Under the pieces are notes generated by a model. It saw only the letters and a list, made by a program, of their open reading frames with translations, did no database searches and was not told the origin of the DNA. Source: an uncultured Methanosarcinales archaeon (GTDB lineage: Archaea; Nanobdellota; Nanobdellia; Woesearchaeales; GW2011-AR9). Taken from it: a stretch of 64,000 nt of DNA. Positions 31,248 through 64,000 of the stretch are shown here, one piece after another. The first letter of the stretch is position 1. Each line of letters begins with the position of its first letter. The stretch is from contig CAZWBB010000001.1 in NCBI GenBank assembly GCA_964632045.1, positions 1 through 64,000 on the forward strand, written 5' to 3'. The translations under genes and the position numbers were made by a program.

Positions 31248-32102
31248 ATGCTGTTTGAACTGGTGATGATGGCTTTGGCTATGGCTACTTTGGTAATAGC
31301 TTCTTTTACCGACCTCAAAACTAGAGAAGTCCCTGACTGGCTGAATTACGGACTTATTTTCGCTGCACTAGGCATCCGGTTTATTTATTCATTTGACCTG
31401 GGTTGGCAGATTATCCTAAGTGGCCTACTTGGATTCGTGGCCTGTTTTGTCTTGGCTTGCCTCTTCTATTACACACATCAATGGGGAGGAGGCGACAGCA
31501 AACTGCTTATGGGGATGGGTGCTGTTATCGGAATTACTTATCCTTTGAATAACAGCAGCTTTCTTTTATTGTGGTTTTTCCTAGCTTTGCTACTTTTAGG
31601 AGCATTTTTTGGAGTGATGTGGATGGGCGTACTGGCCATGAAACGGAAGGAACAATTCATGCAATCGTTCAAGAACAACCTGGGTGAATATCGAGGTGTG
31701 CATATTGGAGCAGGTGCGCTTTCACTGAGTTTTGCTATGATCAGTTTTGGCTTTATGCCCCTGTGGCCCATGGCAGTGCTACCGATCGCCTTTTTCTACC
31801 TTTTTACTTTCGTGACTGCCGTGGAAAGGAGCTGTTTCATCTCTGCAATCGATCCGATGAAACTTACTGCTGGCGACTGGCTGGCGGAAGACGTTTCTAT
31901 TGAAGGAAAGACGGTAGTTGCTAAGAAGACACTGGAAATGACAGAGGTAGAGAAGCTGAAACATCTGAAAAGGCAGGGCAAATTATCTTCAGTAGTGGTT
32001 AAGGAAGGTATCCCTTTCGTCCCTGCTTTTCTGCTGGCATACGTCTTCATCGTTATTGGTGGAGAGATGTTTAGTTGGGTCTGGGGTGTTGTTTTTGGGT
32101 AA
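31248..32102 (+). CDS. Type IV prepilin/preflagellin peptidase (A24 family, PibD/FlaK-like) with C-terminal extension
   Basis: FTDLKTREVPD catalytic Asp motif and HQWGGGDSKLL second Asp motif. Multiple TM helices. Confidence 0.75.
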   Translation: MLFELVMMALAMATLVIASFTDLKTREVPDWLNYGLIFAALGIRFIYSFDLGWQIILSGLLGFVACFVLACLFYYTHQWGGGDSKLLMGMGAVIGITYPLNNSSFLLLWFFLALLLLGAFFGVMWMGVLAMKRKEQFMQSFKNNLGEYRGVHIGAGALSLSFAMISFGFMPLWPMAVLPIAFFYLFTFVTAVERSCFISAIDPMKLTAGDWLAEDVSIEGKTVVAKKTLEMTEVEKLKHLKRQGKLSSVVVKEGIPFVPAFLLAYVFIVIGGEMFSWVWGVVFG

Positions 32103-41097: not shown

Positions 41098-41216
41098 TTT
41101 ACCCCAAAATTGGATTTAGATATCGCTGCTAGTATATAAGTTTTATGGTGCAGTACTACTCCCAAATAGCTACGCACGAAAACTTTATAAACCTCGGTGT
41201 TTGTCACCACAATTGT

Positions 41217-44111: not shown

Positions 44112-44392
44112 TTTTAGGGGCACACCCGCGGTCGAACCAACCAAGCCTCGTTGGCTTAATCCCGAAAGCTTCTCGAGCTTGCTACCCTTTGAACATGAAA
44201 CTTAAAAGTTAAGGCTGCTCCATTCCTGGCCTGACCTGATTCCCAGTAAGCACATCCCAAAGGACAAACCGTCAGCAAAGACGATCGGGACCAACAAAAC
44301 AAAATCAGCCCTTCTTTGGGCTTCGGCTCCGTGTGAGGTCCGTTCACGGTAACAGCGCAGGACCAGCGCGCCAGCCTAGCTATCCCTACTTC
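44112..44392 (-). ncRNA. Signal recognition particle 7S RNA (SRP RNA)
   Basis: Minus-strand reading AUCAGGUCAGGCCAGGAAUGGAGCAGCC (plus-strand 44213-44240). It matches the universally conserved helix-8 motif CAGGUCAGGUCCGGAAGGAAGCAGCC. Alu-like GGUCC/GGACC loops near the 5' end (44340-44370). GC island. TTTAAAAAAAAC TATA on the minus strand at ~44412-44425. Confidence 0.7.
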
Positions 44393-49494: not shown

Positions 49495-50055
49495 CTATTC
49501 TTTCATAAAAGCCCTGATGTAATCCTGGTTCTCAATCGTCTGAGCCATCACTAAGGTAAACCCTTTGAGCGCAATGACCAGGTCGTCCTCACTGCTTTCT
49601 CTGGTATGGACAGTTCCTGAGACTTTCCCGTCCCTCTCAAAGCAAAAGACTTGGGTGAGGGGTGAAGGGTGTTCAACAAAGTAGGCATGAGTCACTCCCA
49701 TCTCCTCCAGCCCTTTGTATTCCTCTTTTTTTAGAAGAGCTTTCCGGAGTACTTTTCTGAAGGGGATAACCTTGCCATTCTCTTGGTATTCACCTTTTCT
49801 GTTGAATGAAGCGACAGGATCCATCCTTCCCCATCTCTTCTTCCGCATGATGGAAAGATAGTCCTTTTTGTCATAAAGTCTTGCCTGGGCGATTACTTTT
49901 CTTTTCTTTGGATCAAGAATGTCTTCCAGGGAGATGTCCCTTGAGTCAGGCTGCAGGTAGTAGTCTGTGTAGATGAAACCTAATCTCTTGGGGTTTTCAC
50001 CTAGCTTGAGAATGTGGGTTCCGTCATCTTCCGTTCTTATCAGGTATTGTGTCAT
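49495..50055 (-). CDS. Hypothetical protein, terminal gene of the array-B operon
   Basis: 186 aa. Starts 18 nt downstream of the vWA gene stop. No motif. Confidence 0.45.
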   Translation of the reverse strand: MTQYLIRTEDDGTHILKLGENPKRLGFIYTDYYLQPDSRDISLEDILDPKKRKVIAQARLYDKKDYLSIMRKKRWGRMDPVASFNRKGEYQENGKVIPFRKVLRKALLKKEEYKGLEEMGVTHAYFVEHPSPLTQVFCFERDGKVSGTVHTRESSEDDLVIALKGFTLVMAQTIENQDYIRAFMKE

Positions 50056-50072
50056 TTTTGGTTACCGCTCTT

Positions 50073-51839
50073 TTATGCTATTCCATAGGTCTTAAACAGT
50101 CTGAGCATCTCATCCGGCAGTCGGTGTAATTCATCCCTGCCCAGCAGAGTGTAATGCTTAGGTCCGATGTGTTTTGTCAGCTCTTTTGCATAACCGTCGA
50201 ACTCCTTGCCGATAACGATGACAAAGGGAAACACTTTGTTGTCGTACAGTTCTTTGAGGACTTCAGGAGCCCCCTTATCGGTCGATTCCCCGTCAGTAAT
50301 GATGGTGATCCCCCGAGGTCGTTCGCCTTGTCTTTCCAACACATGGCCGACCGCTTTTGAACTGGCAGCCAGACGAGTTCCTGCAACATCACTTTTCCTA
50401 CATACAGAGATGATCTTGTTGGCCACTTGAGGATTGTAGGTTTCAGGGAAGTCTTTGATCCTATAAAGGTTACCGCTGAAAGCAAAGAGGCCGAATGGAT
50501 AGTCAGTAACTCCTAACGCTTCCCCCTGGATAAGTAATCCTGCTTTTATCTCATTGATGATATTGTAATGATCCAGATCTGTAGATGGACTGATGTCAGC
50601 CAGGACTGCCCAGGCCGGTCTGTGCTTAAAGCGGCTTTTGGAGACGAAGTGGCGGCCGTTCCTGCTGATGCTGGTCACTTCTCTCTCCAGATCGGTCTGC
50701 AAAAATTCTTCATATTCTAAGTCTTGACCGGAAAAATCCAGGCGTGAAGAACGATGTGTCTGTTTCAGGCGTCGGAAAATACTTTTCATGGAGCCGATGG
50801 CGTAGGCATACTTGTCCCGCAGCTCTTTTTCTTTACGAATGACCCAGTCGGAGTAATCTGGATTCACTTTGACGATGGAGATGTCGGCATCCTCGGATGC
50901 TTCTGTATAGAGACTTTCCCTATCTTTGTCATGCTTAGATGGTTTGGGCTTAGTCTTTTTCCCTTTTGGGTCCGGCTTTTCCTCCTTACCTTTGCCTTTC
51001 TTGAGCCGTTTGGGTCTTTTCTCCTTTTTGTCACGTCCTTCTCTGGGTTTGACTTCCCCCCCATAACCCTGCTGCGGGCTGCCAGGAGTCTTGCTGTGGT
51101 TGCCTTTTCCCTGCTGTTGGGGGAGACGTTTTATCTTCTGCTTGATGTCAAAATTCTCTTTGAATATCTGGTAGATCTTATCGACGGCTTCTTTGTCTTC
51201 ATAGATGGAATCGGCAGAATGACACAGTTCTACACATTCTTCCAGTATCTGCTGATGTTCTTCAGGGACAGGTTCAACTGTGCAGCCCAGCAGAGCCTGC
51301 TGCAGGAATTGTTCTCTGAAAGCGTCCAGCTCAGACATTTTTTTTATGCTTGGCCGGAAATATTTTATGGCATCGTGATGAACTTCCTTGTCATACTTGG
51401 CCAATCCAGGCAACTGCTCACAACGCTGCGCATCGATCCGTCTGTCTTTGACGATGTTATCTATGAATCCGGCCAGGGCAGGATTCTCGGTGAGGTCTGC
51501 ATGGTTCCTCTGCAGGTAGACTCCGACCACACCTTCTCCTTGATTCCTAATAGAATGGATCTCATCTCCGAAATATTCTTCATATTCCCTGATATGGTCA
51601 GCTTCATGAGCAGTGGAGTTGGCTATGTTCATCTCATTATCTCTTTTTTTCTTGCAGAGCTTCTCTCTTGCTGGCAGGAAGATCTTCGTTCCGTCAGTAG
51701 CAGGACAGCCGTTATCACCTTCGATCATCGAACCGCCCTGAATCTCGATGGGATGTTTTTGAGAGGCGCCTTTACCGATACGAAAATCTACCATCCTTTC
51801 CAGTTTTCCAAGCACTTCTGATGTTTTTACTGTGGTCAT
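50073..51839 (-). CDS. HExxH putative metallopeptidase N-domain, Lys-rich linker and vWA domain (DUF2201-like architecture)
   Basis: HEADH (STAHEADHIREYEEY). MIDAS DxSxS (AVLADISPSTD) with downstream T and ITDGEST motifs. About 70-aa K/E/P-rich low-complexity linker. ATGA overlap with 51836. Confidence 0.75.
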   Translation of the reverse strand: MTTVKTSEVLGKLERMVDFRIGKGASQKHPIEIQGGSMIEGDNGCPATDGTKIFLPAREKLCKKKRDNEMNIANSTAHEADHIREYEEYFGDEIHSIRNQGEGVVGVYLQRNHADLTENPALAGFIDNIVKDRRIDAQRCEQLPGLAKYDKEVHHDAIKYFRPSIKKMSELDAFREQFLQQALLGCTVEPVPEEHQQILEECVELCHSADSIYEDKEAVDKIYQIFKENFDIKQKIKRLPQQQGKGNHSKTPGSPQQGYGGEVKPREGRDKKEKRPKRLKKGKGKEEKPDPKGKKTKPKPSKHDKDRESLYTEASEDADISIVKVNPDYSDWVIRKEKELRDKYAYAIGSMKSIFRRLKQTHRSSRLDFSGQDLEYEEFLQTDLEREVTSISRNGRHFVSKSRFKHRPAWAVLADISPSTDLDHYNIINEIKAGLLIQGEALGVTDYPFGLFAFSGNLYRIKDFPETYNPQVANKIISVCRKSDVAGTRLAASSKAVGHVLERQGERPRGITIITDGESTDKGAPEVLKELYDNKVFPFVIVIGKEFDGYAKELTKHIGPKHYTLLGRDELHRLPDEMLRLFKTYGIA

Positions 51840-52870
51840 TTTATATCTGTTTCTAGTGTGTTCTTTATCTCCGGTATATCAACCTTCCATGGATCGATAA
51901 TCTTTACATTTTTAGGTTTGACTTCTGGCTTAGGTTTCTTTTTCTTTGGTGGCTTCATGTATGGTCTCAGGGTACTTCTGCCGGTGGGGAAAACATAGGG
52001 GTAGACTAGCGATGCTGCTAACCTTACAGGGTAGACTAAAGGATGAATTCCGTCCAGAAGAAGAAATCCTGCCACGGGGATAAGTGCCGCATTGGCTATG
52101 TCTGCTTCTGGGGAGTATCCTTTTCCTGCTTTGTCAAGAATGTCCTCGCCCCGCAGTTTTCGTGAAGCATATCCAAACAATAAGGGAAGGATTCCTCCCA
52201 GGAGTATTCCTGCTCCCCAGGGAATCCTGTCTTCCCAGGGAAAATCGTCAGAAATTCTTTTTATATCAAGTGTGTCCCTTCTTTTGTAGAGGCCGCTCTT
52301 GAAGCGTTTAATATCTTCGGGCGGTCTGAAAGTACCATATAGGTCCCAGATATTTCCATTTAAGTCCAGTCTTAATTGTTTTGTGATGCCCGCGCCATGA
52401 TGCAGAAATCTGTAGTGTGTCTCACGGACCCACTCTTCTTTTGCTGCAAGATGCGTCTGCATCGCTTTGAGATCATTTCCGGCCACACTTCTAACAAATT
52501 CAAAATATTCCCGCTGTTCTGGAGTGTGGACAAGACTGTTCTTTTGAGTCTCTGAGGTCTTCTGGCGGATCTCTTTATCGGTCCTGCTTAGGACGGATTC
52601 TAAAGCAGTGATCTCATGGGTGTTCAGTTCACGATCAGCGCTGAAAGCATTGTATAGATCGCTGTAGACAAGATATTCTTTTTTTGAGTCGTCGAAAGTG
52701 GGCTGCTCTGGAGTAAGTTTTTCCGGGAGTGAGATGCCAGCTTTGGCGATAGTCTCCTCTACTGTCGGTTCCAGTTTTCTCTCAGCAGCAAGCATGAAGC
52801 CGCTGCCCACCAGCAATCCACCAGCTAGAACAAGTGGAGTACTTTTCCTAAGCATGTATCTGTAGTTCAT
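51836..52870 (-). CDS. C-tail-family paralog, secreted subtype (signal peptide; C-term IIDPWKVDIPEIKNTLE)
   Basis: N-terminal MNYRYMLRKSTPLVLAGGLLVGSGFMLA signal. GxxxG-rich hydrophobic segment (GAGILLGGILPLLFGYASRKLRG). Conserved C-terminal motif. Confidence 0.75.
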   Translation of the reverse strand: MNYRYMLRKSTPLVLAGGLLVGSGFMLAAERKLEPTVEETIAKAGISLPEKLTPEQPTFDDSKKEYLVYSDLYNAFSADRELNTHEITALESVLSRTDKEIRQKTSETQKNSLVHTPEQREYFEFVRSVAGNDLKAMQTHLAAKEEWVRETHYRFLHHGAGITKQLRLDLNGNIWDLYGTFRPPEDIKRFKSGLYKRRDTLDIKRISDDFPWEDRIPWGAGILLGGILPLLFGYASRKLRGEDILDKAGKGYSPEADIANAALIPVAGFLLLDGIHPLVYPVRLAASLVYPYVFPTGRSTLRPYMKPPKKKKPKPEVKPKNVKIIDPWKVDIPEIKNTLETDIK

Positions 52871-53943
52871 TCTGAATCTTTCCTCACTTCTAATGTACTT
52901 TTTATCTCTGGTATCTCAACTTCCCATGGATCGATGATCTTTGCTTTTGGAGGTTCGATCTCAGGAGGTTCTGTTTCAGGCTCTTCTACCTGCACCTTTC
53001 CTGTTTTCTTCTTTTCGCTCGGGAAAATATATGGGCAGACTAACGCTGCCGCGATCCTTACTGGGTAGACCATTGGATGGATACTATCAAGAAGTATGAA
53101 TCCCGCGACGGGATTTGCAATAATGTTGATGTAATCACTTGTGCCTCCGTTTTCTCCATCACCTATAAATTCCTCGCCACGAATTCTCCTTACTCCATAA
53201 CTAAAAAGTCCTGGCAGCAGTAATCCCATAAAAAGACCCAGGGAGTAAGGTATCTTATCCTCCCAGGGGTAGTCGTCGATGAAGTCTCTAATCAGAAGGT
53301 TTTCTCTGCTGTTGTAGAGACCACTCTTGAAATGTTCTATTTCTTTGCTTGGATTGAATAGGTTCCTCAGGTATACGGGTTCTCCTTTTCTCCGGTCACC
53401 GCGGTCTTGCTTATGGATGTTTCCAGTGTACGGTGTAGAAAGATTGACGATCTTACCTGAACCATGATGCCAGTATCTGTCCACTGTTGAAGCCAACCAT
53501 TCTTCCTTTTTCTCAAGATGCAGGCGAAGTTCTTTAAGATCAGTGCTTTTGATTCCAAGAACATAAGTTACATATTTCTGTTCTGCTTCTGAACGGATTG
53601 CGTTGATGTCCCACAATTCCTCGCTCTTCTTACCTATTTCCTCCACCAATCTGTCCAGGATATATTCTAGCGCTTCGATCTCTCCAGTACTGAGTTCATC
53701 ATCGGTAGTGAATCTTTCATAAGCTCTGCTGTAGATAAGGAATTCTTGTTTTGGCTTATCGTAGATAGGCTCTTTTGGAGTCAGTCTTTCTGGTAGGGGG
53801 AAGTCGATGCTGGCAGGGATGCCTTCTTCTGCATTTTCTCCCTCGGTTGGTTGTTCACTTCCACTTAACATGATGCTTCCTGTCAACAATCCACCAGCTA
53901 GGATGAGTGGAGTTCCTTTCCTAAGTATCTTTTTGTAGTTCAT
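52867..53943 (-). CDS. C-tail-family paralog, secreted subtype
   Basis: Signal peptide MNYKKILRKGTPLILAGGLLTG. C-term KIIDPWEVEIPEIKSTLE. Confidence 0.75.
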   Translation of the reverse strand: MNYKKILRKGTPLILAGGLLTGSIMLSGSEQPTEGENAEEGIPASIDFPLPERLTPKEPIYDKPKQEFLIYSRAYERFTTDDELSTGEIEALEYILDRLVEEIGKKSEELWDINAIRSEAEQKYVTYVLGIKSTDLKELRLHLEKKEEWLASTVDRYWHHGSGKIVNLSTPYTGNIHKQDRGDRRKGEPVYLRNLFNPSKEIEHFKSGLYNSRENLLIRDFIDDYPWEDKIPYSLGLFMGLLLPGLFSYGVRRIRGEEFIGDGENGGTSDYINIIANPVAGFILLDSIHPMVYPVRIAAALVCPYIFPSEKKKTGKVQVEEPETEPPEIEPPKAKIIDPWEVEIPEIKSTLEVRKDSE

Positions 53944-54932
53944 GTTGTGTCTTTGAGGATGTTTTCTATCTCAGGGATCTCTACTTTCCAGGGATTGATG
54001 ATCTTTGGTTTAACTTTGGGCTTATTCATGAGCGGCTTCTTGTACTTTTTCGGTTTACGATTTCTAGTATGGAAAACATAAGGATAAATTATAGATGCAG
54101 CTAGTCGGATTGGGTAGACTAGAGGATGGATGCCATCAAGAAGAAAGATGCCGGCTGCTGGATTAAGTACAGCGTTAATTATATCTGAGTATCGAGCGGA
54201 TTGTTTTCTTGCATCAAATAAATTCTCACCACGTAGTTTTCGCGAGGCATATCCAAACAATACTGGAAGGAATCCTCCTAATAGCAGTCCTGCTCCCCAA
54301 GGTATTCTGTCTTCCCAGGGATGGTCTTCCTTGAATGTTTTTATGACAACATCAGGATATTTGTTGTAAACAACGTTAAGGAGATAGGTTCCTTTTGGTT
54401 CAAATACTGATTCAAGGTCACGGATATTCCCCTCGTCTAGATCAGCTAGGTATTTTGATGCCCCAAATCCGTGATGCCAGTATTTTCCTTCAGTAGTTGA
54501 TATCCATTCTTCCTTTGCTTTTAGATGTTTACGTAATTCTTTTAGGTCCTTGGCCATACGTTCAGTTAAGTAGAAATGATCCCTTCCTTGCTTCGATTTC
54601 ATTTGATAAGCTCTTTCAGTCTTATGTTGCAATTCCAGGATGGTTCTACTTAGCACGTGCTCCAAGGCGGTGATCTCGTGGGTGTCTAATTCTCCATCAT
54701 TGGTGAAAGCAGTGTACAATTCACTGAAGACCGAATATTCTTTTGTAGGATCACCAAGAAGCGGTTTCTCAGGAGTCATCCTTTCCGGCAGTGTTATCCC
54801 AGCAGCAGCAATCGTCTCTTCTACTGTCGGCTCTTCAGCAGCTTCGTGAGCTGGATAAAGAGCGCTGCCTACCAATAAGCCACCTGCCAGCGCAAGTGGA
54901 ATACTTTTTTTGATTATATTTTTGTATTTCAT
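53940..54932 (-). CDS. C-tail-family paralog, secreted subtype
   Basis: Signal peptide MKYKNIIKKSIPLALAGGLLVG. C-term KIINPWKVEIPEIENILK. Confidence 0.75.
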   Translation of the reverse strand: MKYKNIIKKSIPLALAGGLLVGSALYPAHEAAEEPTVEETIAAAGITLPERMTPEKPLLGDPTKEYSVFSELYTAFTNDGELDTHEITALEHVLSRTILELQHKTERAYQMKSKQGRDHFYLTERMAKDLKELRKHLKAKEEWISTTEGKYWHHGFGASKYLADLDEGNIRDLESVFEPKGTYLLNVVYNKYPDVVIKTFKEDHPWEDRIPWGAGLLLGGFLPVLFGYASRKLRGENLFDARKQSARYSDIINAVLNPAAGIFLLDGIHPLVYPIRLAASIIYPYVFHTRNRKPKKYKKPLMNKPKVKPKIINPWKVEIPEIENILKDTT

Positions 54933-54947
54933 CTTTTGCCTACCTCA

Positions 54948-56384
54948 TCATACAAATTTCTCCACAACCTCCATCAGCTCCTTAGCCATCTGGCCTCCTC
55001 CATGAGCGATGTCGTTCTCGTAGGTCACCAATGGATTGATAACCATGTCTCTGAACAGATCTCTCTGGGTGATGTTCGTTCCAGAAGCGATCCGTTGCGC
55101 TACTTCAACAGCTCCTTTCAGTCCAAGATCCTTGTTGTAGGTGTGTACCTTGCCGCGCATCTCATCAAGCACACTGGAGATCATCTCTGCTGTATCATAC
55201 TCGATTCCCGGTGCACGGGCCATGAGGATGTCTGTAGTATTGTCTTTAGAGGGGTAGCCCATCTTTAGCTGGTTGAACCTCTGTAATGTTGCGTCGTTCC
55301 ATTCATTGTGGGTATAGTTGGCGTGGAAATTACCCAGCGCAACAAACCTGAAGTTTGGTCCTGCTCTGAGCAGCTCGTAACCAAAATGGGTGTTTACTGG
55401 CAACTCGCCGGTTTCCAGGAAAACGTTCAATGCTGTAAACTCATCCTGGTGAATCGGAGCGGCTTCTTCCAAAGCATAAACGCCGTCGTGTATCAATGCG
55501 AGGGTCAGTGCTCCCGGTGAAAAGACTGGTTTGTCTATACCTGGAACAAACTGTCCGATCGTCCGTGAGACACGGAAAGAGCTTCCACCTTTCTCGTAGA
55601 AGTAAGGGATACTTCTCTCACAGGCATATTCCCTGGTAAGTACGCTCTTTCCATTTCCGGTCGGTCCGTTGAGGATTATCGGTCTTGTGTATTCATCCAT
55701 GTAAGTAAAGAACCTGTCCTTTTCTCCTTTCTGGTCCTGGTAAGGGAAAGCATCTTTGATCATCCTGGGGGCAAAGTGTTGCTTTACAAAACAGGTGAAA
55801 TCTGTCTCTTCCATGCTCTTTCGCGGCGTGATGACGGTCGGAGCCTTCACTTCCTTCTTCTTGACACTTTTTCCTTCAACATCGGCCATAATCCTTTCCA
55901 GCATCACCAAAGGCAGAAAGGCTTTGCATTCTGAAGAGGTGGTGGTTAGAGTGGCCCTTTTCCTTCCGTCGCTTTCAAAGAGATCCAATACACCCTGCTC
56001 CTCCTTGCTGCGGATATTATAGCGGTGGGTGATACCCATCTCCTGCAACTTTTCTAATCCTTCTTCTTCAGGCAGCTCATCGGCATCTGCCCGGTCGATG
56101 TCGTATTTTCGGCCATTGACACGCAGAGTCAAATGGTCTTCATCCTCAAAAGTAAGGATGGAGAGAAATTCACCGTTCTTCAGCTGAACACGGTCTTTTT
56201 CCGGCAGATGGGAACTGATAATTCCTAGTTCACTATCATCCTGCATCGAACTCACTTCGTAGTGTATGGGCAGTTCCAGTTCATCCTCAAGAGTAGGCGT
56301 CTTCACTGCCACTTTGTCACCTTGGTCGTCCGTATTGACCAGCACAACTCCTTTTTCCTGAAAAGCTATGGTATATTGTTTCAT
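54948..56384 (-). CDS. AAA+ ATPase, CbbQ/NorQ/MoxR-like, with N-terminal extra domain
   Basis: Walker A LNGPTGNGKS (compare CbbQ GPTGCGKT). Walker B-like VYALEEA. Start set at MKQYTIAFQ so that ATG overlaps the TGA of the upstream paralog (ATGA). The track ORF extends to 56444. Confidence 0.7.
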   Translation of the reverse strand: MKQYTIAFQEKGVVLVNTDDQGDKVAVKTPTLEDELELPIHYEVSSMQDDSELGIISSHLPEKDRVQLKNGEFLSILTFEDEDHLTLRVNGRKYDIDRADADELPEEEGLEKLQEMGITHRYNIRSKEEQGVLDLFESDGRKRATLTTTSSECKAFLPLVMLERIMADVEGKSVKKKEVKAPTVITPRKSMEETDFTCFVKQHFAPRMIKDAFPYQDQKGEKDRFFTYMDEYTRPIILNGPTGNGKSVLTREYACERSIPYFYEKGGSSFRVSRTIGQFVPGIDKPVFSPGALTLALIHDGVYALEEAAPIHQDEFTALNVFLETGELPVNTHFGYELLRAGPNFRFVALGNFHANYTHNEWNDATLQRFNQLKMGYPSKDNTTDILMARAPGIEYDTAEMISSVLDEMRGKVHTYNKDLGLKGAVEVAQRIASGTNITQRDLFRDMVINPLVTYENDIAHGGGQMAKELMEVVEKFV

Positions 56385-57367
56385 TTTTTTCCTCCAAATC
56401 TGTTTTCTAGTATGTTTTTTATCTCTGGAATGTCTACACTCCATGGATCGATAAGCCTGAAAGGTTCTTGTTCTATTACTTCTTCCGTCTCGTCTTCTTC
56501 CGCCTGTGGCTGTTGTTTTTGATGGGTTGCTTTCTTTCCTGTGATCAGAGATTCAAAAAACTCATAGATCATGTTCTTGTCGGAGCGGGTATATCCTATG
56601 GAGAGTCCTCTTTGGGAATCTGTGTTTTTGAATTCTTCTCGAAGAATCTCAAAATGCTTGTCTAGTTTTTTCCTTAGCCTTTTTATTCTCTGTTTGCTGA
56701 ATGGTCCTTTCACGCTTTTAATATCCTCGTAAGCACGCATGAACCTGTCAAGGAAAAAATCAGGGTTCTTCAGTTTTCTTTCGAGATGTTTATATGTGGG
56801 AATGTACCCAATTGCATGAAGTGGACCGCAGGGGCTACCTTTGTAGCCTTTGAGACCTGTCAACATTTCCGCTGCGAATAATCCTGCTACGACGGGCAGA
56901 TAGAGGCGTTCAGGAACCCCAAGATAAATGGAAGCTTCTGTCAATCCCAGGACTCCTGCAATAGAGGCTGCGAATCCAGGAAGGCGGCTTCTACGCAGAT
57001 ACGAGTCCCAGTGAGAGATGTATCCTCTTTTCCGGGTGAGTTGGACCTCGACGCTGCCTGGATGCCAGATTCTCCAGTGGCCTTCACTTAAGTATTCCAT
57101 ATAATCCTCCTCCTCATGCGGTACCTTTTGCCCTGTGGCAGATTCAGTCCTCTCCATGAGAGTACGGAAAAGTGGATAATCTTTCTCTTCAAGATCGGGT
57201 CTGAAAAGTACACCCTGGTAATAGTCGTTTTCGGAACTGCCAAGGTTCCTGTATAGGCGGACAATATACCCGTCTAAGGTTGTCTGCGCCATATACTTCC
57301 TTCTCTTCTTCACTTCAATGATATCTTTAAAGATTCCCTGGGAGAACCTCATGGTGGTGTAGCTCAT
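56381..57367 (-). CDS. C-tail-family paralog, cytoplasmic/membrane subtype (C-term LIDPWSVDIPEIKNILENRFGGKK)
   Basis: Family core (YYQGVLFRPDLEEKDYPLFRTLMER). GxxxG hydrophobic segment, then GPLHAIGYIP. Conserved C-tail. Confidence 0.75.
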   Translation of the reverse strand: MSYTTMRFSQGIFKDIIEVKKRRKYMAQTTLDGYIVRLYRNLGSSENDYYQGVLFRPDLEEKDYPLFRTLMERTESATGQKVPHEEEDYMEYLSEGHWRIWHPGSVEVQLTRKRGYISHWDSYLRRSRLPGFAASIAGVLGLTEASIYLGVPERLYLPVVAGLFAAEMLTGLKGYKGSPCGPLHAIGYIPTYKHLERKLKNPDFFLDRFMRAYEDIKSVKGPFSKQRIKRLRKKLDKHFEILREEFKNTDSQRGLSIGYTRSDKNMIYEFFESLITGKKATHQKQQPQAEEDETEEVIEQEPFRLIDPWSVDIPEIKNILENRFGGKK

Positions 57368-58137
57368 CTTTCCTTCCCTCCTTGCAGCACATTCTCTATC
57401 TCAGGGACTTCTACTTCCCACGGATCGACTACCCCAGTGGGGACCATTACCACAGATTCTGGCTCCTCTGCGTCCTCATCGAGTTCTGCATGTACCCCTA
57501 AAGCAGCGTAGTACACGGCACGCTCAAGTTTTAACAGATGTGGACTACGCATCTGTACAGAGAGACCTTTCTGAAATGCTGTAAATGGGAATAAATCTGT
57601 GATCAGATCATAATAGTAATCTATTTTCTCCTCCATCTTGCCAAGTTTTTTCAGGCTTAGTGAATCTCTATTATTATCAAATCTGGTGTATGCTTCCAGG
57701 AATCTATCAGGGATGTGATTGGGATGCAGGGCTTTGTTCTTTTGGAGGTAGTATGACAACATGAATCCGGCTTTTGCCCTAACTCCTGCAGGCAGCATTT
57801 TCGTCTGTTCCGGGTTGAGATGGATGGTAAGGTTATGACTGTCATAGTGCAGCTTCAATCCACCCCTGGCTAAATACTCGTCAAATGAATCTGAGTCATT
57901 CGCTATACCCCGCTTAGTTGCATTGGCAATCCTGTTGGTCATGTCCTTGAAAAAGTGAGAGAAGCTCTGAGGAGAGTGGATCACTGCCTGGAAATCCTTT
58001 TGGCCTGCCTCTCTATAGAGCCGGTAAAATCTATACCTTCCCAAATCAGTATGCATGTAGAAAGCACCATCTCTCCTGATCTCTAATCTACTTCTTCCAG
58101 TTACCTGGTCTGCCATGGTCGTTACCTGAAGAGTCAT
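57364..58137 (-). CDS. C-tail-family paralog (short, no hydrophobic segment; C-term VVDPWEVEVPEIENVLQGGKER)
   Basis: Conserved C-tail. GGAGG encoded by the GG codons precedes the next ATG. Confidence 0.7.
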   Translation of the reverse strand: MTLQVTTMADQVTGRSRLEIRRDGAFYMHTDLGRYRFYRLYREAGQKDFQAVIHSPQSFSHFFKDMTNRIANATKRGIANDSDSFDEYLARGGLKLHYDSHNLTIHLNPEQTKMLPAGVRAKAGFMLSYYLQKNKALHPNHIPDRFLEAYTRFDNNRDSLSLKKLGKMEEKIDYYYDLITDLFPFTAFQKGLSVQMRSPHLLKLERAVYYAALGVHAELDEDAEEPESVVMVPTGVVDPWEVEVPEIENVLQGGKER

Positions 58138-59108
58138 TCTCTCTTCACCTCCAACACATTCTCGATCTCAGGGATTTCTACACTCCAAGGGTCGATCAAT
58201 TTTACTGGTTCTGCTCTCTCTATAGGTTCTGCTGTCTCATCCGGAGATTCACCACACGCTACCCAATTATTTATCCCTGTGCTGAGATAGGCGATGCGTT
58301 CAAACACTCTGTCTTGGTCGGAGTTGACAAAAGTGATGGAGAATCCTTTCTGTTTGTAAGTTTGTTTGAATATCTCCTTGATAACCTCATAGTATAAGTC
58401 CATCTTGTTGATCATCTTCATGATTTTTCTTGGAGAAGCTGTCTTCTTTTTCTTTTCAAGAGCATTATGAGTCCGCATAAATCTTTCAGTGGCATAATCC
58501 GGATGCATCATCTTATTTTTGGCAAGGAACCATGCCGGAACGTAGCCGAGGGCATGGACAGGACCTACCCACTCTTTCCTTTCCACTAATGTAAATGCAC
58601 CGCCCATCCCTTCAAGAACTGAGTACATCATTCCAGCTAACACCATGTCACCACCACCTGATCCAAACTGCTCGTTATATGCCGCCAAAATAACTCCCGC
58701 AAAACCCGCCAACGTGCATACTGTCCCAGGAATGTGGGCGATGTTGGCCGCTCTTCTGTGTAGTCTTCCAGTGAATGGATATCCTTTGGTGTTTACATTC
58801 AATACAGAACCGTCAGAATAATTTTTCACCATCCCTTTTCTGGCGATGTAACCGTAATAATCATCGACATCATTGTCAACATGCTCCCCCGTGATATCCT
58901 CCATCCTGTCCGTAAGCAGCTTGAACAGAGCAGGATCCTTCTCTGTTGAAAAGACAGAACCCTCATATTTCTGACCTAAAGCATGATGCAATCGGGAGTA
59001 CAAGCCGTTACCATGACGGTCCTGAAAGTAGTACTCGTCATCTCTCTTGATGGATATCCTTTTGAAACCTTTTACAGTATCCTCGATTGTGGTTACTTTG
59101 TAGTTCAT
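58134..59108 (-). CDS. C-tail-family paralog (C-term LIDPWSVEIPEIENVLEVKRE)
   Basis: Start set at MNYKVTTIED (ATGA overlap with upstream stop at 59105-59108). Gly-rich hydrophobic segment, then GPVHALGYVP. Confidence 0.7.
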   Translation of the reverse strand: MNYKVTTIEDTVKGFKRISIKRDDEYYFQDRHGNGLYSRLHHALGQKYEGSVFSTEKDPALFKLLTDRMEDITGEHVDNDVDDYYGYIARKGMVKNYSDGSVLNVNTKGYPFTGRLHRRAANIAHIPGTVCTLAGFAGVILAAYNEQFGSGGGDMVLAGMMYSVLEGMGGAFTLVERKEWVGPVHALGYVPAWFLAKNKMMHPDYATERFMRTHNALEKKKKTASPRKIMKMINKMDLYYEVIKEIFKQTYKQKGFSITFVNSDQDRVFERIAYLSTGINNWVACGESPDETAEPIERAEPVKLIDPWSVEIPEIENVLEVKRE

Positions 59109-59833
59109 CTTCTTCCCCCCTGTGCTACGTTTTCTATCTCTGGTATGTCTACTTCCCATGGGTCGATGATTTCAGTTGGCACTGTTGCGATGATGGGCTG
59201 TTCTTCCACAACTTCCTCTTTGGATTCTTCAGCCACCCGAAGGATTTTGCTGTAATGATTGTATAGGAGGTATAGATTCCTGCTTCTGGTGAATAAAGAA
59301 AAACCGTTCTGTTTACCAGAAAAAATCTTATCAAGAAGGGAAAAATGCTGATCCAGTTCCTGACCCAAACGCAAGGCCTCATCCTTCTGGTTAAAGCCAA
59401 GGGTGTGGTATTCTTTGTGCGTCTGAAGGAATTCTTTCCACAATTCGTCTCCTGTTTCAACTAGTATGTCCTCGGCACCTGGTTCTGGGATCGTTATGTC
59501 GGTGTATTTAGTGTCGACAGATAAGCCTTTTCGATTTACAAAATTGATAAATTCTGCTGGAGAGGTATCTATCCCGGACGGTTTACCTTGCTTCTCTTCG
59601 ATTCTTTCAACCAACAGCTTAAAGAGGTTGTAGTCCTTTTCATCATCCGTGAAATCTGGTTTGAACAGAGTTCCAAGGTATTGGGCGACTGGGGGAATAC
59701 CGTTTTCCATCTTGTAGACCCTTAGAAACAGGCAATCATCCAGTTCTGCCTGAGCCAGCATCTTATCTCCGCATCTAATTTCGGTTACAGGTTTTCCAAA
59801 TCCTCTGTCTACTTCCTGAACTGAATAGCTCAT
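59105..59833 (-). CDS. C-tail-family paralog (MSYSVQEVDRGFGK N-type; C-term IIDPWEVDIPEIENVAQGGRR)
   Basis: N-terminus is near-identical to 60750 and 62704 members. Conserved C-tail. Confidence 0.75.
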   Translation of the reverse strand: MSYSVQEVDRGFGKPVTEIRCGDKMLAQAELDDCLFLRVYKMENGIPPVAQYLGTLFKPDFTDDEKDYNLFKLLVERIEEKQGKPSGIDTSPAEFINFVNRKGLSVDTKYTDITIPEPGAEDILVETGDELWKEFLQTHKEYHTLGFNQKDEALRLGQELDQHFSLLDKIFSGKQNGFSLFTRSRNLYLLYNHYSKILRVAEESKEEVVEEQPIIATVPTEIIDPWEVDIPEIENVAQGGRR

Positions 59834-60753
59834 CCTTTCACCCCCTGCAGCAAACTCTTGATTTCAGGAATGTCTACTTCCCATGGGTTGATTAGGGGCA
59901 ATGGTTGTCCTGAATCCTCTGGCTGTATCAGATGCTTTTGATTTCCTGTCTTTAGGTAAGAGAAAAAACCAAGTACTTCATCAAGGGTTCCTTTATAATG
60001 GATGGTAAGGCCCTGATAATCCTGAGTCTGGTGAAATTGTCCTTCCAGGAGTGGAATCAAAGGACATAATCTGTTTCTTAGAGACTGACATTCTCCGTAG
60101 TTCGTAGAATTTTCTGCCTTCAGGGCAATACCTACAGCTTTTTCCCACAACCAGGAAGGGTGGCTGAACTTGCGGGAGTAATATTGTTTGTATGGAAGGT
60201 GGCCTAGGCATCTAAGTGGACCAAGCCAGTATTTGGATTCTCTCTTTTCACCCAGATAAATGCCGATTAATAATTCTGGGGTTGTGGACATGAGGAAGGC
60301 GAGAGGTGCAGGAAGGCCAACTTGATTCAGCACACAGGCCCCGGCAGTTATTCCTGCTACTATGGTAGCGATGCCCAAAGGCAATGATTTATCGCGGGCA
60401 TAATCATCATAGCCGTAGGGGGTAAAACGGGTACTTTTATGATTGATTCTTAGAATTGTCTTATCAGAGTACTTAACAAGTCCCTCCCGTAGATATTTGG
60501 GATAGGTGCCAATGCTATTATCAATTTCGATCCCTGGATAATCCTCCAGAAAGGCTGTTAAGTTTTGAAATCTTTTATAATCAGCGGGCAAAATTTGCAG
60601 CGGTCTGAAGAGGACTCCATAAGCACAATCTTTGTGGCCCCATATCCTCAGGCAGTCTCCCTCCAAGGTGGTCTGCTGTAGGGATCTTTTGCCATCACTA
60701 AGGCAGCCTCCTCCAAGTATGGGATGAGTTCTGGTGACTATTCTATATGTCAT
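59830..60753 (-). CDS. C-tail-family paralog (C-term LINPWEVDIPEIKSLLQGVKG)
   Basis: Hydrophobic GxxxG segment, then GPLRCLGHLP. 3' ~45 nt are near-identical to the 60750 member. Confidence 0.75.
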   Translation of the reverse strand: MTYRIVTRTHPILGGGCLSDGKRSLQQTTLEGDCLRIWGHKDCAYGVLFRPLQILPADYKRFQNLTAFLEDYPGIEIDNSIGTYPKYLREGLVKYSDKTILRINHKSTRFTPYGYDDYARDKSLPLGIATIVAGITAGACVLNQVGLPAPLAFLMSTTPELLIGIYLGEKRESKYWLGPLRCLGHLPYKQYYSRKFSHPSWLWEKAVGIALKAENSTNYGECQSLRNRLCPLIPLLEGQFHQTQDYQGLTIHYKGTLDEVLGFFSYLKTGNQKHLIQPEDSGQPLPLINPWEVDIPEIKSLLQGVKG

Positions 60754-61769
60754 CCTTTCACCCCCTGCAGCAAACTCTTGATTTCAGGAGCATCTACGTC
60801 CCATGGGTTGGTGATCTTTGGCTTGTCATCTAATTCTGGAATATCCATCTCCCACGGATCGATGATCGGAAAAGAGTCCTCCTTCGCGAGTACGCTCTGT
60901 CTGCAGCAGTCTATTCCGGCGAAAGTTTCGTTTACTTTGTCCAGTATACCATCCCGGTAGCTGATGGAAAGACCTTTCTGTCTTTGGGTGTAAGGAAAGA
61001 TTGATGTAAGATATGAAAAGTATTTGTCTGCTTTTCTTTGCAGGAAGTATCTGCTTATTCTGTTGCTGCCTTGTAGTTTGTCGTTAGTGTGGAGAAATTC
61101 ATCCCATACTTTTGCCGGGCCGAGAATCCTTTCTCTCATGTACATATGGCTGAATGCCCAGCCTAAGGAGTGGAATGGGCCTGACCATCCTCTCTCTTTG
61201 AAATTGTGGAAGCCGGCGCAGATCTCAAAGATTCCCATGGCCATCATCCCTTCTAACATAGTACCTGGAAATCCGACTGATTGTATAAATGGTCCTCCAA
61301 TAGCAGCAGTACCAATCGCTGATGTCAGCAGACCGGGGATTCTGCCTTTCCAGCTGAGGTTCTTATCCAACCATTGTGATAACTGTCCTTGCCAGAACTT
61401 ATGTGAATTCCGTTCCAATTTTAGTTCAATTCCATCTACACTGGCATTGAGATACTGGTCACCCATCAGGTTCATCCTGTAAGCAGCAGGCGAAGTATCG
61501 ATACCACTCTTCTTTCCCGTGTAAGTTTCAATAGCTTCTACCATCGTCAGGAAATCCTGGTATCCAGCAGCATTAGCTCCAACCTTCTTGAAAAGTATCC
61601 CATGATGGTCCTTGTTGGCAAGAGGCACTCTATTCTCCTGCAGTCCATGATAGGTCCTGTAAAAAAATCCATCATCCAATTCCACCTGAGCCAGCATCTT
61701 CTTTCCACATCTCACTTCCGTGACCAGTTTTCCAAGTCCTCTGTCTACTTCATGGATGGAATAACTCAT
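60750..61769 (-). CDS. C-tail-family paralog with duplicated C-tail motif (IIDPWEMDIPELDDKPKITNPWDVDAPEIKSLLQGVKG)
   Basis: MSYSIHEVDRGLGKLVTEVRCG N-type. GPFHSLGW motif. Tandem duplication of the DPW..PEI tail. Confidence 0.75.
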   Translation of the reverse strand: MSYSIHEVDRGLGKLVTEVRCGKKMLAQVELDDGFFYRTYHGLQENRVPLANKDHHGILFKKVGANAAGYQDFLTMVEAIETYTGKKSGIDTSPAAYRMNLMGDQYLNASVDGIELKLERNSHKFWQGQLSQWLDKNLSWKGRIPGLLTSAIGTAAIGGPFIQSVGFPGTMLEGMMAMGIFEICAGFHNFKERGWSGPFHSLGWAFSHMYMRERILGPAKVWDEFLHTNDKLQGSNRISRYFLQRKADKYFSYLTSIFPYTQRQKGLSISYRDGILDKVNETFAGIDCCRQSVLAKEDSFPIIDPWEMDIPELDDKPKITNPWDVDAPEIKSLLQGVKG

Positions 61770-62707
61770 CTTTCCTTGCCTCCCTGCAGTACATTCTTTA
61801 TCTCAGGAATCTCTACTTTCCATGGGTCGATTATGGGGGATGGGTCCTGCACGATTTCTGGTTCTTCTTCTGTTATAACATTTATTCCTGCAAGTATGCC
61901 GGAAAAAGTGTTGTAAACATCATCCAGGCTCCTGCTGCTATAAGTGACAAAAAACCCTTTGGCTAGTTCAGTATTCTTGAATGTCTCTTCCAGGACGGCA
62001 AAACTATCCTCCATCTTTCTGCATAAAGAATGATATTTCTTCATGTTGCAGATATTACCCTGCAGGGACTGGGCTTTCTGGTGGGTTTTCGTTAGTTCAC
62101 TCAAGATTCTATCAGTGTTGTAGTATTTACTTAGGACATATTCAGTTGGAAAATGTGCCAGGCCGTGGAATCCTTCTCTGAGTTCCAGGCCTCTAATTAA
62201 TCCCACACTACAATCGGTTAAGGCTGCAAAAAGACCTACTGCTAGGGCAGCTCCGACACCTACACTCATCCCGGAGATAGCAGCAGAAGAAGTCAACCAA
62301 CCAGGAATACTGCCTTTCTTTCTGATATATTCATTGCGGTTAGGCGAATATTGGGTTCTGTCATTTGTATTGAGCTCCCATCTTAGGGGTCCTAATTTGT
62401 GATAGGTCCCTGGATGCTTGGCCCAACCCACGAAATTTTCTGGAGTGATGTCCAATCTGCTAGAGCGGCCTGATTGCTCCTCCATCCCTCGGGCCAGAAG
62501 CTCAAATGTATGGTAGAATTCTTGGTCCATTTTTGTCGGTCGGGTAAAGAGTACCCCTTGATAATCCGAACTGTTTCGGCCTCCATATATCCGAAGTTCA
62601 AGATCTCTCTCCAAAGATGTGACTCGGGCTAGATATGAATCATCGTACTTGATTTCCTCTACCTTGCTGCCATTGATCCAATCTCTGGTGTCTACAGAAA
62701 TGCTCAT
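61766..62707 (-). CDS. C-tail-family paralog (C-term IIDPWKVEIPEIKNVLQGGKER)
   Basis: Family core GVLFTRPTKMDQEFYHTFELLARGMEE. GxxxG segment. Confidence 0.75.
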   Translation of the reverse strand: MSISVDTRDWINGSKVEEIKYDDSYLARVTSLERDLELRIYGGRNSSDYQGVLFTRPTKMDQEFYHTFELLARGMEEQSGRSSRLDITPENFVGWAKHPGTYHKLGPLRWELNTNDRTQYSPNRNEYIRKKGSIPGWLTSSAAISGMSVGVGAALAVGLFAALTDCSVGLIRGLELREGFHGLAHFPTEYVLSKYYNTDRILSELTKTHQKAQSLQGNICNMKKYHSLCRKMEDSFAVLEETFKNTELAKGFFVTYSSRSLDDVYNTFSGILAGINVITEEEPEIVQDPSPIIDPWKVEIPEIKNVLQGGKER

Positions 62708-63702
62708 CCTTCCACCTCCAGTACATTCTGTATCTCAGGAATCTCTACATCCCACGGGTCGATGATGGGCGAGGGTTCTGAAGGATTTGCATCCTCCGCT
62801 TCTCCTAGCCCGCTTCCATGCAAGATCTCTGCGAAGGTATCATATAAAGAATCAAAATCATGACTCTTGAGACTGATCGAGAATCCTTTTTGGAGAGTTG
62901 TATAGCCGAATATCTCTCTCAGAAATCCAAAGTAATAATCCTGTGTGTTAAGGAGAGAAGTGTATCTCCTTTGCTGCTTGATACAGTTGCCCAAAGATTC
63001 CATTTCTCTATGTGCTTCCAGGAATTTACCAAGTACAAACTGGGGGTCTTTTAGATTTTTGAGGCGGTGAAAGAATGATGGAGCATGTCCCAAGCTGAAT
63101 AATGGACCTCGCCGGCCATTCTGTGCTGGCATACACAAATCAGCATATGTTCTGACTCCGATTATTTCAGGCAAGGTAGAGCAGCCTATGAGTGGCAACG
63201 AAATATATAGCGGAATATCTGGCGCGGAAAAAAGCACACTCGCTGACGTTAAAATACCTCCGATTGAGGTCATTAACCCCATAATATGAGGTGTTTCTCG
63301 CAGATACGAGTACATTTTTGGTGAGTAATAACCTGAATTCCAGACGTGCTTCGTAATACGTTTATCCTGGATGCGCAGTCTGAGATCGAAGTAGCCAACA
63401 TCTGCGCTTGCTCCCTTCCTTTTCACATAGTCGACGAAGCTGGGAGCGTCTGTCTTCAATCCACTGGACTTTCCTGTGCAGATTTCAATTCTCTCAACAA
63501 GGGATTTGAATGTTTGATGTTTCTTCTCATCAACCGTTAGGTTGGGAATGAATAGGACCCCTCTGTGACTTCGGCCATCATCATACGCCCGGAAATAGAC
63601 GTTATCATCTACAGCAACCTGGGCAATCCTCGTATTGTCACAAATAACTTCCGTGACCAGTTTTCCAAGTCCTCTGTCTACTTCATGGATGGAATAGCTC
63701 AT
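62704..63702 (-). CDS. C-tail-family paralog (MSYSIHEVDRGLGKLVTEV N-type; C-term IIDPWDVEIPEIQNVLEVEG)
   Basis: The 5' ~50 nt are near-identical to the 60750 member. GPLFSLGHAP motif. Confidence 0.75.
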   Translation of the reverse strand: MSYSIHEVDRGLGKLVTEVICDNTRIAQVAVDDNVYFRAYDDGRSHRGVLFIPNLTVDEKKHQTFKSLVERIEICTGKSSGLKTDAPSFVDYVKRKGASADVGYFDLRLRIQDKRITKHVWNSGYYSPKMYSYLRETPHIMGLMTSIGGILTSASVLFSAPDIPLYISLPLIGCSTLPEIIGVRTYADLCMPAQNGRRGPLFSLGHAPSFFHRLKNLKDPQFVLGKFLEAHREMESLGNCIKQQRRYTSLLNTQDYYFGFLREIFGYTTLQKGFSISLKSHDFDSLYDTFAEILHGSGLGEAEDANPSEPSPIIDPWDVEIPEIQNVLEVEG

Positions 63703-63902
63703 TCTCCCTCCTCCAGCACATCTATCGTCACCTGTACTATCGTCTGTGGTTTCAGTTTATCTTTTAGGAAAGAAGGAAGTATTATTACAGATTGCTTTCC
63801 GTGCTTGGCTATCTTCTTAGTCAGTACTATCGGCTTCAATATTACACCACCAACACATAAATGATGTGTCTCTAACACACCCCACAGAACCACCTGACAC
63901 AT
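63699..63902 (-). CDS. Small ORF at the head of the array-B operon, possibly an AbrB/SpoVT-like swapped-hairpin protein
   Basis: C-terminal ...KHGKQSVIILPSFLKDKLKPQTIVQVTIDVLEEGE resembles AbrB/MazE-type (K.G.vtIP..hR..L.h..GD.h.h). ATGA overlap with the first paralog. True start may be an internal TTG. Confidence 0.3.
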   Translation of the reverse strand: MCQVVLWGVLETHHLCVGGVILKPIVLTKKIAKHGKQSVIILPSFLKDKLKPQTIVQVTIDVLEEGE

Positions 63903-64000
63903 GGAAAATGAGGGTTATATATAAATCTTTTGGTGGGTTGTTACTTGCGAGTGGTCGGGGGTGAAGGTGTGGTAAAATTTAAAAGGAAATAGTGACTTCA

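Follow-up and report, generated by a model that had tools for sequence, protein, structure and literature searches.

To our knowledge, how machines built from a MoxR AAA+ ATPase and a von Willebrand factor A (VWA) protein choose their substrates is poorly understood, and the client pairs studied so far are few (cNOR, Rubisco, LdcI and respiratory complexes). This report concerns array B, a string of minus-strand genes in a 64,000-nucleotide stretch of contig CAZWBB010000001.1 (the window), in which such a pair is encoded among eleven proteins that share a C-terminal peptide, the tail. The closest described systems are the NorQ/NorD chaperone, which inserts FeB into cNOR (PDB 9qh4–9qhg), and the Rubisco activase CbbQ/CbbO (5c3c, 6l1q). 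In NorQD, a finger of the VWA adaptor fills the AAA+ pore, and the adaptor's C-terminus binds the postS1 loops. The adaptor's N-domain binds the small AAA+ subdomain, its linker is stretched by ATP-driven rotation, and the target is contacted by the N-domain and the MIDAS, a metal ion-dependent adhesion site (PMC13036017, PMC9976466).

Array B resembles NorQ/NorD in that a CGN-type MoxR ATPase adjoins an adaptor of ~600 amino acids (aa) in which, as in NorD, an N-domain, a long disordered linker, a finger, a VWA/MIDAS domain and a conserved C-terminus follow one another. Unlike NorQD, however, array B has no nor genes nearby, its ATPase carries an extra, family-specific N-domain of ~215 aa that has a free paralog, X, and its adaptor has an invariant HExxH motif in an N-domain that does not align with that of NorD. 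Whereas the NorQD client is one enzyme recognised by surface carboxylates, the clients of array B are many, unrelated and peptide-tagged. CbbQ is the best solved relative of the ATPase (5c3c, E=3.7e-12), ahead of NorQ (9qhd, E=2.5e-8), and CbbQ/CbbO likewise pairs a MoxR hexamer with a single VWA adaptor, but array B has no Rubisco genes and differs in its domain additions and tag logic. Rea1/Midasin also has an AAA_5-class motor and a MIDAS module that engages several clients (Rsa4/Ytm1) through a shared element; it is, however, eukaryotic and a single giant polypeptide, and the shared element is a folded ubiquitin-like domain with a conserved Glu instead of a linear peptide at the C-terminus.

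The vWA–MoxR–VMAP ternary conflict systems (Kaur et al. 2020, PMC7159879) share with array B the MoxR and vWA core, variable partners and diversification, and peptidase domains are occasionally fused to their vWA component (PMC7159879). They are found in multicellular bacteria rather than in DPANN archaea, and in array B no VMAP domains were detected, STAND and effector domains are absent, and the linkage is a C-terminal peptide. As in ssrA–ClpXP and FtsH, a short C-terminal peptide marks unrelated proteins and an AAA+ ATPase is combined with HExxH. Array B differs in using a MoxR (clade 7) AAA+ protein and a tag that is genomically encoded on co-operonic genes; unfolding and translocation are without support.

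Array B is one copy, expanded in its own lineage, of a conserved system that appears to be concentrated in DPANN archaea. We read it, with a probability of roughly 60%, as a NorQD-like machine for remodelling, and possibly for processing, to which interchangeable clients are directed by a portable docking peptide at their C-termini. The arrangement looks like an undescribed way of addressing proteins to MoxR–VWA machines. An earlier note on this DNA had proposed a MoxR–vWA module wired to diversified proteins with a common C-terminal handle; the homologies of ATPase and adaptor, the tail and the synteny bear this out. The same note recognised no described system, and none was found in Pfam, NCBIfam, PADLOC, PHROGs or the searched literature. 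A portable tag on unrelated co-operonic families, an HExxH-bearing NorD-like adaptor, an ATPase N-domain with a free paralog and a DPANN-centred distribution all appear new, being unseen in the searched libraries and literature; the MoxR–VWA pair itself is of an already known kind.

Gene content and the C-terminal tail

Array B is an unbroken minus-strand string running from 63,902 to 49,495, with 15 consecutive co-directional open reading frames (ORFs; ~14.4 kb) in the order small ORF, P1–P8, ATPase, S1–S3, VWA protein and X. Adjacent genes share 4-nt ATGA overlaps at 12 of the 14 junctions; a 15-nt gap follows the ATPase gene and a 17-nt gap the VWA gene. Gene calls of the Joint Genome Institute (JGI) on an identical metagenome contig agree on the boundaries of the first eleven genes. 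A convergent methyltransferase gene closes the unit. The ~14-kb minus-strand operon with ATGA overlaps at nearly all junctions that the earlier note described was thus recovered, with 15 genes in place of its 16. Synteny kept in >20 other loci supports treating array B as one putative functional unit. Its features, all on the minus strand, are as follows.

63916–63925, minus: TATA-box-like TTTATATATA, candidate archaeal operon promoter (read from sequence)
63699–63902, minus: small first gene, 67-aa ORF from ATG (sequence and homologue comparison)
62704–63702, minus: P1, P-type client, 332 aa (ORF and alignment)
61766–62707, minus: P2, P-type client, 313 aa (ORF and alignment)
60750–61769, minus: P3, P-type client, 339 aa, two tandem tails (ORF and alignment)
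59830–60753, minus: P4, P-type client, 307 aa (ORF and alignment)
59105–59833, minus: P5, short P-type client, 242 aa, without the hydrophobic hairpin (hydropathy)
58134–59108, minus: P6, P-type client, 324 aa from the ATGA-overlapping start (ORF and JGI calls)
57364–58137, minus: P7, short P-type client, 257 aa, without the hairpin (hydropathy)
56381–57367, minus: P8, P-type client, 328 aa (ORF and alignment)
54948–56384, minus: MoxR-class AAA+ ATPase, 478 aa, CbbQ/NorQ-like (Pfam AAA_5; CbbQ and NorQ in PDB)
53940–54932, minus: S1, S-type client, 330 aa (ORF and alignment)
52867–53943, minus: S2, S-type client, 358 aa (ORF and alignment)
51836–52870, minus: S3, S-type client, 344 aa (ORF and alignment)
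50073–51839, minus: NorD-like HExxH/VWA adaptor, 588 aa (motifs and profile matches)
49495–50055, minus: X, 186 aa, final gene of the operon (BLASTP and hhalign)

The tail, [ILV][ITV][DN]PWx[VM][DE][IVA]PE[IL], stands 8–12 residues before the C-terminus of all 11 P- and S-type proteins and reads IIDPWEVEIPEI in the window. The common C-terminal peptide of the earlier note is therefore present on each of the 11, and twice on P3, whose tandem copies (IIDPWEMDIPEL … ITNPWDVDAPEI) are separated by 5 residues. A relaxed tail pattern run over the six-frame ORFs of the 64-kb window gave no match beyond these proteins. The tail cores lie at:

62731–62766, minus: P1 (IIDPWDVEIPEI)
61799–61834, minus: P2
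60780–60866, minus: P3, two tandem cores (60,831–60,866 and 60,780–60,815)
59860–59895, minus: P4
59135–59170, minus: P5
58164–58199, minus: P6
57397–57432, minus: P7
56420–56455, minus: P8
53967–54002, minus: S1
52903–52938, minus: S2
51866–51901, minus: S3

The tail is under protein-level selection, because the summed entropy of its 12 codons is 13.4 bits at codon position 3 against 1.5 at position 2 (5.1 at position 1) and because four different codons encode the Pro that is invariant in the DPW motif. That its conservation is instead a nucleotide by-product of translational coupling or gene conversion is hardly credible. Such an origin could draw on the 12 of 14 overlapping junctions, on the Shine–Dalgarno-like GGAGG/GGGGG in the last few codons, and on the 3′ ends of P3 and P4, whose 91% identity over 66 nt suggests a recent local exchange. 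Yet within the motif the entropy at codon position 3 is far above that at the other two, the tail DNA copies are only 60–77% identical to one another, and the internal second copy in P3 is distant from any start codon. Between the end of the motif and the start codon that follows there are 24–36 nt, and the Shine–Dalgarno-like sequence lies 3′ of the motif. An origin in ribosome-binding-site or start context, which the earlier note had set against its own reading, is excluded by this synonymous variation, DNA divergence and motif position. The tail is also kept in other phyla, in single-client and multi-client loci alike and before genes that do not overlap, as befits a genuine handle. A C-terminal sorting signal (PGF-CTERM/archaeosortase, PEP-CTERM and similar) was considered and rejected: the tail is acidic/amphipathic, no transmembrane helix lies beyond it and 4–17 residues remain to the stop.

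Within each genome the tail is near-uniform, and between genomes it differs (VTDPWSVDIPEI in locus L012, LTDPWEVDIPEI in L004, IPNPWDIDIPKI in L005 and FINPWEVQIPKL in Woesearchaeota metagenome-assembled genomes), as predicted for co-evolution with one shared receptor. The P, the W, the alternating hydrophobics and the I-P are constant across genomes, and position 3 is D or N, position 8 is D, E, Q or N, and position 11 is E, K or Q.

By profile comparison, the proteins that carry this peptide are two unrelated families, eight P-type and three S-type, and not the eleven paralogs of one family first proposed. When the S-type (8 sequences from 3 organisms) was compared with the P-type (32 sequences) by hhalign, the 22-column tail alone aligned. 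P1–P8 are 23–40% identical to P1, and S1–S3 16–17%. The shared core (Y.GVLF.P...) reported for all eleven was accordingly found in the eight P-type proteins and does not extend to the three S-type.

P1 has an N-terminal beta-rich domain, a hydrophobic helical hairpin (Kyte–Doolittle segments at residues 140–158 and 165–183), a helical C-domain, a disordered linker and the tail. Its AlphaFold2 model has a predicted local distance difference test score (pLDDT) of 85 and a predicted template modelling score of 0.79, with pLDDT below 50 at residues 302–307, in the linker before the tail; the fold has no match in PDB or BFVD. The S-type comprises an N-terminal signal/anchor, an ectodomain of ~190 aa, a C-terminal hydrophobic region, a basic/Pro-rich linker and the tail. 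After the ~190-aa domain comes a conserved membrane segment, IPWGxGLLLGxxLPxL…R, and a second hydrophobic stretch has conserved D, H, P and R, with basic residues on both flanks. Because these C-terminal hydrophobic segments are flanked by basic stretches, a membrane anchor with the tail in the cytoplasm is likelier for S1–S3 than free secretion; of the secreted trio in the earlier note, the N-terminal signal peptides stand and secretion is not supported.

Searches of the clients in Pfam, NCBIfam, PADLOC and PHROGs gave no match, and no relation was found between the P-type and the ATPase N-domain or X. In a protein from elsewhere (P0018, 600 aa), a kinase domain is fused to a tail-less P-type domain; the window itself has two Ser/Thr protein kinase genes (12753–13793, plus; 41145–42893, plus).

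The first ORF probably starts at TTG 63,839 (46 aa, MKPIVLTKKIAKHGKQSVIILPSFLKDKLKPQTIVQVTIDVLEEGE) rather than at ATG 63,902. GGTGGTG sits before the TTG, the 46-aa product aligns full-length with the 53-aa opening gene of L012, and the first 21 codons of the 67-aa ORF have no counterpart in that homologue. A Pfam search with the window's first ORF gave no match; by eye its product resembles AbrB/SpoVT proteins, and it may regulate the operon. The same position at other loci is held by a 47–54-aa protein with a weak match to ribbon-helix-helix (RHH)/CopG proteins (RHH_1, E=0.002).

Core proteins and related loci

The ATPase matches Pfam AAA_5 with 36.8 bits (cutoff 22) over residues 236–370, and its Walker A motif GPTGNGKS begins at residue 240 (55,644–55,667). 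This agrees with the CbbQ/MoxR-like AAA+ ATPase of the earlier note. On sequence likeness, it probably belongs to the CbbQ/GvpN/NorQ-type group of MoxR AAA+ proteins, and it is predicted to form an active hexameric ATPase ring. Walker B is a variant, hhhhEE (55,464–55,478): where CbbQ has ‘YLDE’ the alignment reads ‘ALEE’, and E306 and E307 are invariant in nine orthologues. Identity is ~50% among archaeal loci and 32% to the bacterial locus. GvpN identity was rejected, as NCBIfam TIGR02640 scores 38.1 bits against a cutoff of 266.8 and no gvp genes are present. In the ATPase of L002 (2030–3523), a 22-aa segment (SPFLPIVIYDKIKRDMEGKTV) is internally duplicated in tandem where the N-terminal domain ends. 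X is a separate protein that is paralogous to the second half of the ATPase N-domain (BLASTP E=4e-5; hhalign 87%, E=4e-6), without a relative in Pfam or PDB. It follows the VWA gene in 15 loci and is the opening gene in the bacterial (Aerophobetes) locus L011.

The 588-aa adaptor is laid out as an HExxH N-domain, a disordered basic linker, a helical ‘finger’, a C-terminal VWA domain and a conserved C-terminus. Both motifs named in the earlier note are there: HEADH at residue 78 (51,594–51,608), and a MIDAS formed by DISPS at residue 415 (50,583–50,597) with TDG (50,283–50,297). A DxxxD motif, VKDRRID, lies at 51,432–51,452. H78, E79, H82, D132, S419 and D516 are invariant in 39 of 39 family members, a set that takes in bacterial members and a paralog from array A (4,716–6,506), and E85 and D136 are at least 90% conserved among them. 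The adaptor matches NorD (9qhd_G) by hmmsearch at E=2.6e-17 (profile positions 331–529), and canonical NorD by hhalign at 98.7% over 237 columns to the C-terminus. AlphaFold2 places a helical hairpin at residues 345–389. The MIDAS domain is nearest to those of Midasin/Rea1 and NorD, its residues intact and invariant, and ‘PATDG..I.LP’ is common to adaptor and NorD by eye alone. In finger, VWA domain and C-terminus the adaptor is, by these profile matches, of NorD/CbbO type. The hhalign comparison aligned this C-terminal part only, with no alignment between the two N-domains, and canonical NorD lacks HExxH. The invariance of HExxH…DxxxD suggests a possible zincin-like catalytic role. Neither norCB nor cbbLS was found near the system, in the window or in the >20 related loci.

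These loci, annotated uniformly with one script, lie mainly in Woese-, Pace- and Nanoarchaeota metagenome-assembled genomes, and in each the tail stands beside the same core. The recurrent order is a small RHH/AbrB-like protein, tagged protein(s), the ATPase, zero to n tagged proteins, the VWA protein and X. Across loci the tail is found on no fewer than four unrelated families, namely the P-type, the S-type, the soluble F225 family (~225 aa) and small transmembrane proteins of 150–200 aa. Also tagged are a 272–278-aa family and singletons, one of them a 76-aa protein that apparently consists of one N-terminal hydrophobic helix and the tail. F225 has no hydrophobic segment and shares with the P-type the tail alone (20 columns); the 278-aa family has a nucleotidyltransferase-like look (GS…DLD) by eye alone. 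Profiles of P-type, F225, 278-aa family and X gave nothing significant against PDB sequences. Most loci hold 1–3 tagged genes, the window 11 and L004 at least 13. Identity among the core proteins is 40–56% in most archaeal lineages, whereas P-type clients are ~20–25% identical.

A search with a profile of the eight P-type proteins returned 59 cluster representatives among 1.84 billion proteins. The strict tail was found in 25 of the 59, a looser pattern added 3, and ~4 more are degenerate by eye. The VWA protein has 59 relatives among 5.8 billion proteins, some annotated NorD; those named come from Woesearchaeota, Pacearchaeota, Nanoarchaeota, ‘archaeon’, Aerophobetes bacteria and one 6-kb contig labelled Heimdallarchaeaceae. 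A first contig scan with the tail pattern gave nine pattern matches, none confirmed as a P1 relative. Phage records, IMG/VR and plasmids held no match beyond generic VWA proteins, and a mobile-element origin was rejected on that ground.

Several loci have neighbours of their own. In seven, X is followed by a 302-aa protein that contains HExxH (FHEALH) and whose hydrophobic C-terminal segment might anchor it in the membrane; they include L008 (4703–5611), L009 (12320–13228), L014, L015, L017 and the P0075 contig. This protein was not found in the window by tblastn. The flanks of the system on the P0075 contig (JGI 3300072015, 154 kb) carry two phage-integrase genes, a terminase-like gene and a DUF2779 gene, a setting that may be an integrated element or an insertion hotspot beside the system. 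The S-type gene of L005 (2–1093) has an in-frame stop near its 5′ end, which is a sequencing error or marks a pseudogene; its orthologue in L006 is intact. L011 has two Band_7 genes directly after its VWA gene (5426–7326), and the window has three Band_7/SPFH genes (27822–28880, plus; 38987–40054, minus; 40051–41097, minus). These genes may be a functional link to membrane microdomains, or coincidence.

Proposed mechanism and rival explanations

In the proposed machine, the core would comprise the CbbQ/NorQ-type ATPase with its added N-domain, the NorD-like adaptor with HExxH, X and the small DNA-binding-type protein. Clients would be defined not by fold but by a peptide of 12–16 residues, [ILVF]x[DN]PWx[VI]x[IV]Px[IL], after a disordered linker; in the window these would be the eight P-type proteins, most with a membrane hairpin, and the three S-type with a cytoplasmic tail. 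By homology to NorQD and CbbQO, the ATPase would assemble as a hexamer and, in a geometry transferred from NorQD, carry one adaptor whose finger plugs the pore and whose conserved C-terminus docks. Client tails would bind a common core receptor, most likely the ATPase N-domain with X, or a substrate groove of the HExxH domain. ATP-driven twisting would then remodel, release or position the client. The HExxH site might clip the tail or its linker, which is plausible because the motif is invariant. Docking of the tail in the AAA+ pore, a test suggested in the earlier note, is unlikely by analogy, as the finger fills the NorQD pore (PMC13036017) and the adaptor has a homologous finger segment; threading of the tail would also be unlikely in a pore that the finger plugs.

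Several points weigh against this reading. Of the P-type homologues found among the 1.84 billion proteins, about half have no recognisable tail, Walker B has EE instead of DE in all ATPase orthologues, and a peptidase family search with the adaptor N-domains of the 39 members gave no match. Co-transcription as a single unit is predicted from overlaps and synteny. Docking of the tail to a core component is something we infer, along with the receptor, the direction of action, any proteolysis and the physiological role; gene content, homologies, synteny and the conservation and modularity of the tail are observed. A receptor search for alignment columns that track E-type (IPEI) against K-type (IPKL) tails gave candidates in all three core proteins and so no single receptor, with only two E-type systems and with phylogeny as a confounder. 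Finally, no tail carboxylate is invariant across genomes, which leaves classic MIDAS–carboxylate recognition unsupported and favours strand or groove docking instead.

The tagged proteins could instead be interchangeable effectors in a system of conflict, defence or host interaction, which the core restrains, activates or turns over via the tail and whose array has been diversified by an arms race with viruses or with the episymbiont's host. This is possible, if on the unlikely side. It would fit the swapping of unrelated client families in one operon slot under a constant tag, the rapid divergence of clients against a conserved core, the small RHH- or AbrB-type regulator that opens the operon, the restriction of large expansions to some genomes (the window and L004), the probable DPANN identity of the window genome, and the one locus flanked by integrases and a terminase-like gene. 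MoxR–vWA cores also occur in NTP-dependent conflict systems (PMC7159879). Yet PADLOC 2.0 assigned 0 families to 8 proteins, and no VMAP match was found in the window proteins, the only hit elsewhere being E=0.031 in one L020 protein (14.9 bits against a cutoff of 27). No toxin or nuclease domain was recognised in any client, phage, plasmid and IMG/VR collections gave no instance of the system, and several loci sit amid housekeeping genes (ribosomal proteins, SecY, tRNA synthetases). A tag-directed, ATP-dependent protease, with the tail as degron, the HExxH domain as protease and the AAA+ ring powering degradation or trimming of co-encoded proteins, is a more doubtful proposition. HExxH and the downstream DxxxD are invariant in all 39 adaptors, bacterial members and the array-A paralog included, and absent as HExxH from canonical NorD; the tail sits at the extreme C-terminus behind a linker that is disordered in the P1 model; and in several loci X is followed by a further HExxH protein, one with a possible membrane anchor. 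Against a protease stand the missing peptidase match and the kinship with NorQ-type ATPases, whose pore is filled by the VWA finger and which are not known unfoldases (PMC13036017).

An assembly or insertion chaperone dedicated to one multi-subunit membrane complex of P- and S-type proteins, one of the roles considered in the earlier note, is improbable. The homology to the NorQD and CbbQO maturation chaperones and the hydrophobic segments of most window clients are what such a role would predict. It is weakened by genomes in which the same core has a single client, by soluble clients (F225), by the interchangeability of the families, and by the lack of any metal-site enzyme encoded alongside. 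Client swapping, single soluble clients, the leading regulator and lineage-specific expansions argue against a chaperone for one enzyme or one complex and fit an effector or cargo logic. The tag-addressed remodelling machine might be extended, tentatively and at well under even odds, to a class of peptide-addressed AAA+ machines. A tag that is C-terminal here and N-terminal in array A would bring interchangeable effectors to a MoxR–VWA–metallopeptidase hub, which processes or deploys them in the interaction of a DPANN episymbiont with its host or in antiviral conflict; large arrays would be diversified effector repertoires.

Host, neighbourhood and significance

The window is archaeal, since it contains an archaeal signal recognition particle RNA (44117–44386, minus; Rfam RF01857, 107 bits). 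The nearest named homologues of its phosphoribosyl pyrophosphate (PRPP) synthase (20709–21707, minus) are from Woesearchaeota and Nanoarchaeia, at 57–58% identity, and together with the VWA homologues they indicate that the host genome is probably that of a DPANN (Nanoarchaeia) archaeon. PRAI, radical-SAM and cyclase genes lie near the PRPP synthase gene (13.8–21.7 kb). Also in the window are a UvrD-type helicase with RQC and HRDC domains (22764–24956, minus), a type IV prepilin peptidase (Peptidase_A24; 31248–32102, plus) and a 615-aa protein whose N-terminus is Pro-rich and whose C-terminal part carries TPR repeats (45712–47559, minus), encoded immediately upstream of the neighbourhood of array B.

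At the other end lies array A (1–10688, plus), at least 13 co-directional and mostly overlapping ORFs, the first of which runs off the window start. Its proteins are of at least three families, all starting MNILKPLK(H/R)GNV(L/M)TEEEALKDLE. In its middle is a 596-aa VWA protein with HELNH…DxxID and a DTSSS MIDAS (4,716–6,506), which is 15% identical to the array-B VWA family and has the same invariant residues. No AAA+ gene of array A lies within the window. The tag-plus-VWA logic of array B seems to recur here with the tag at the N-terminus, which is in keeping with the earlier note's view of array B as the mirror image of array A.

The clients of array B are marked by a transplantable peptide of ~12 residues and are encoded beside their machine, which opens substrate recognition to direct tests. 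Several protein families that carry no annotation are also defined by the system, among them the P-type with a fold that has no PDB match. DPANN archaea have small genomes, and this one, probably of that group, devotes 14.4 kb to array B and at least another 10.7 kb to array A. So large a coding outlay points to an important function, perhaps at the cell surface or in conflict with viruses or hosts.

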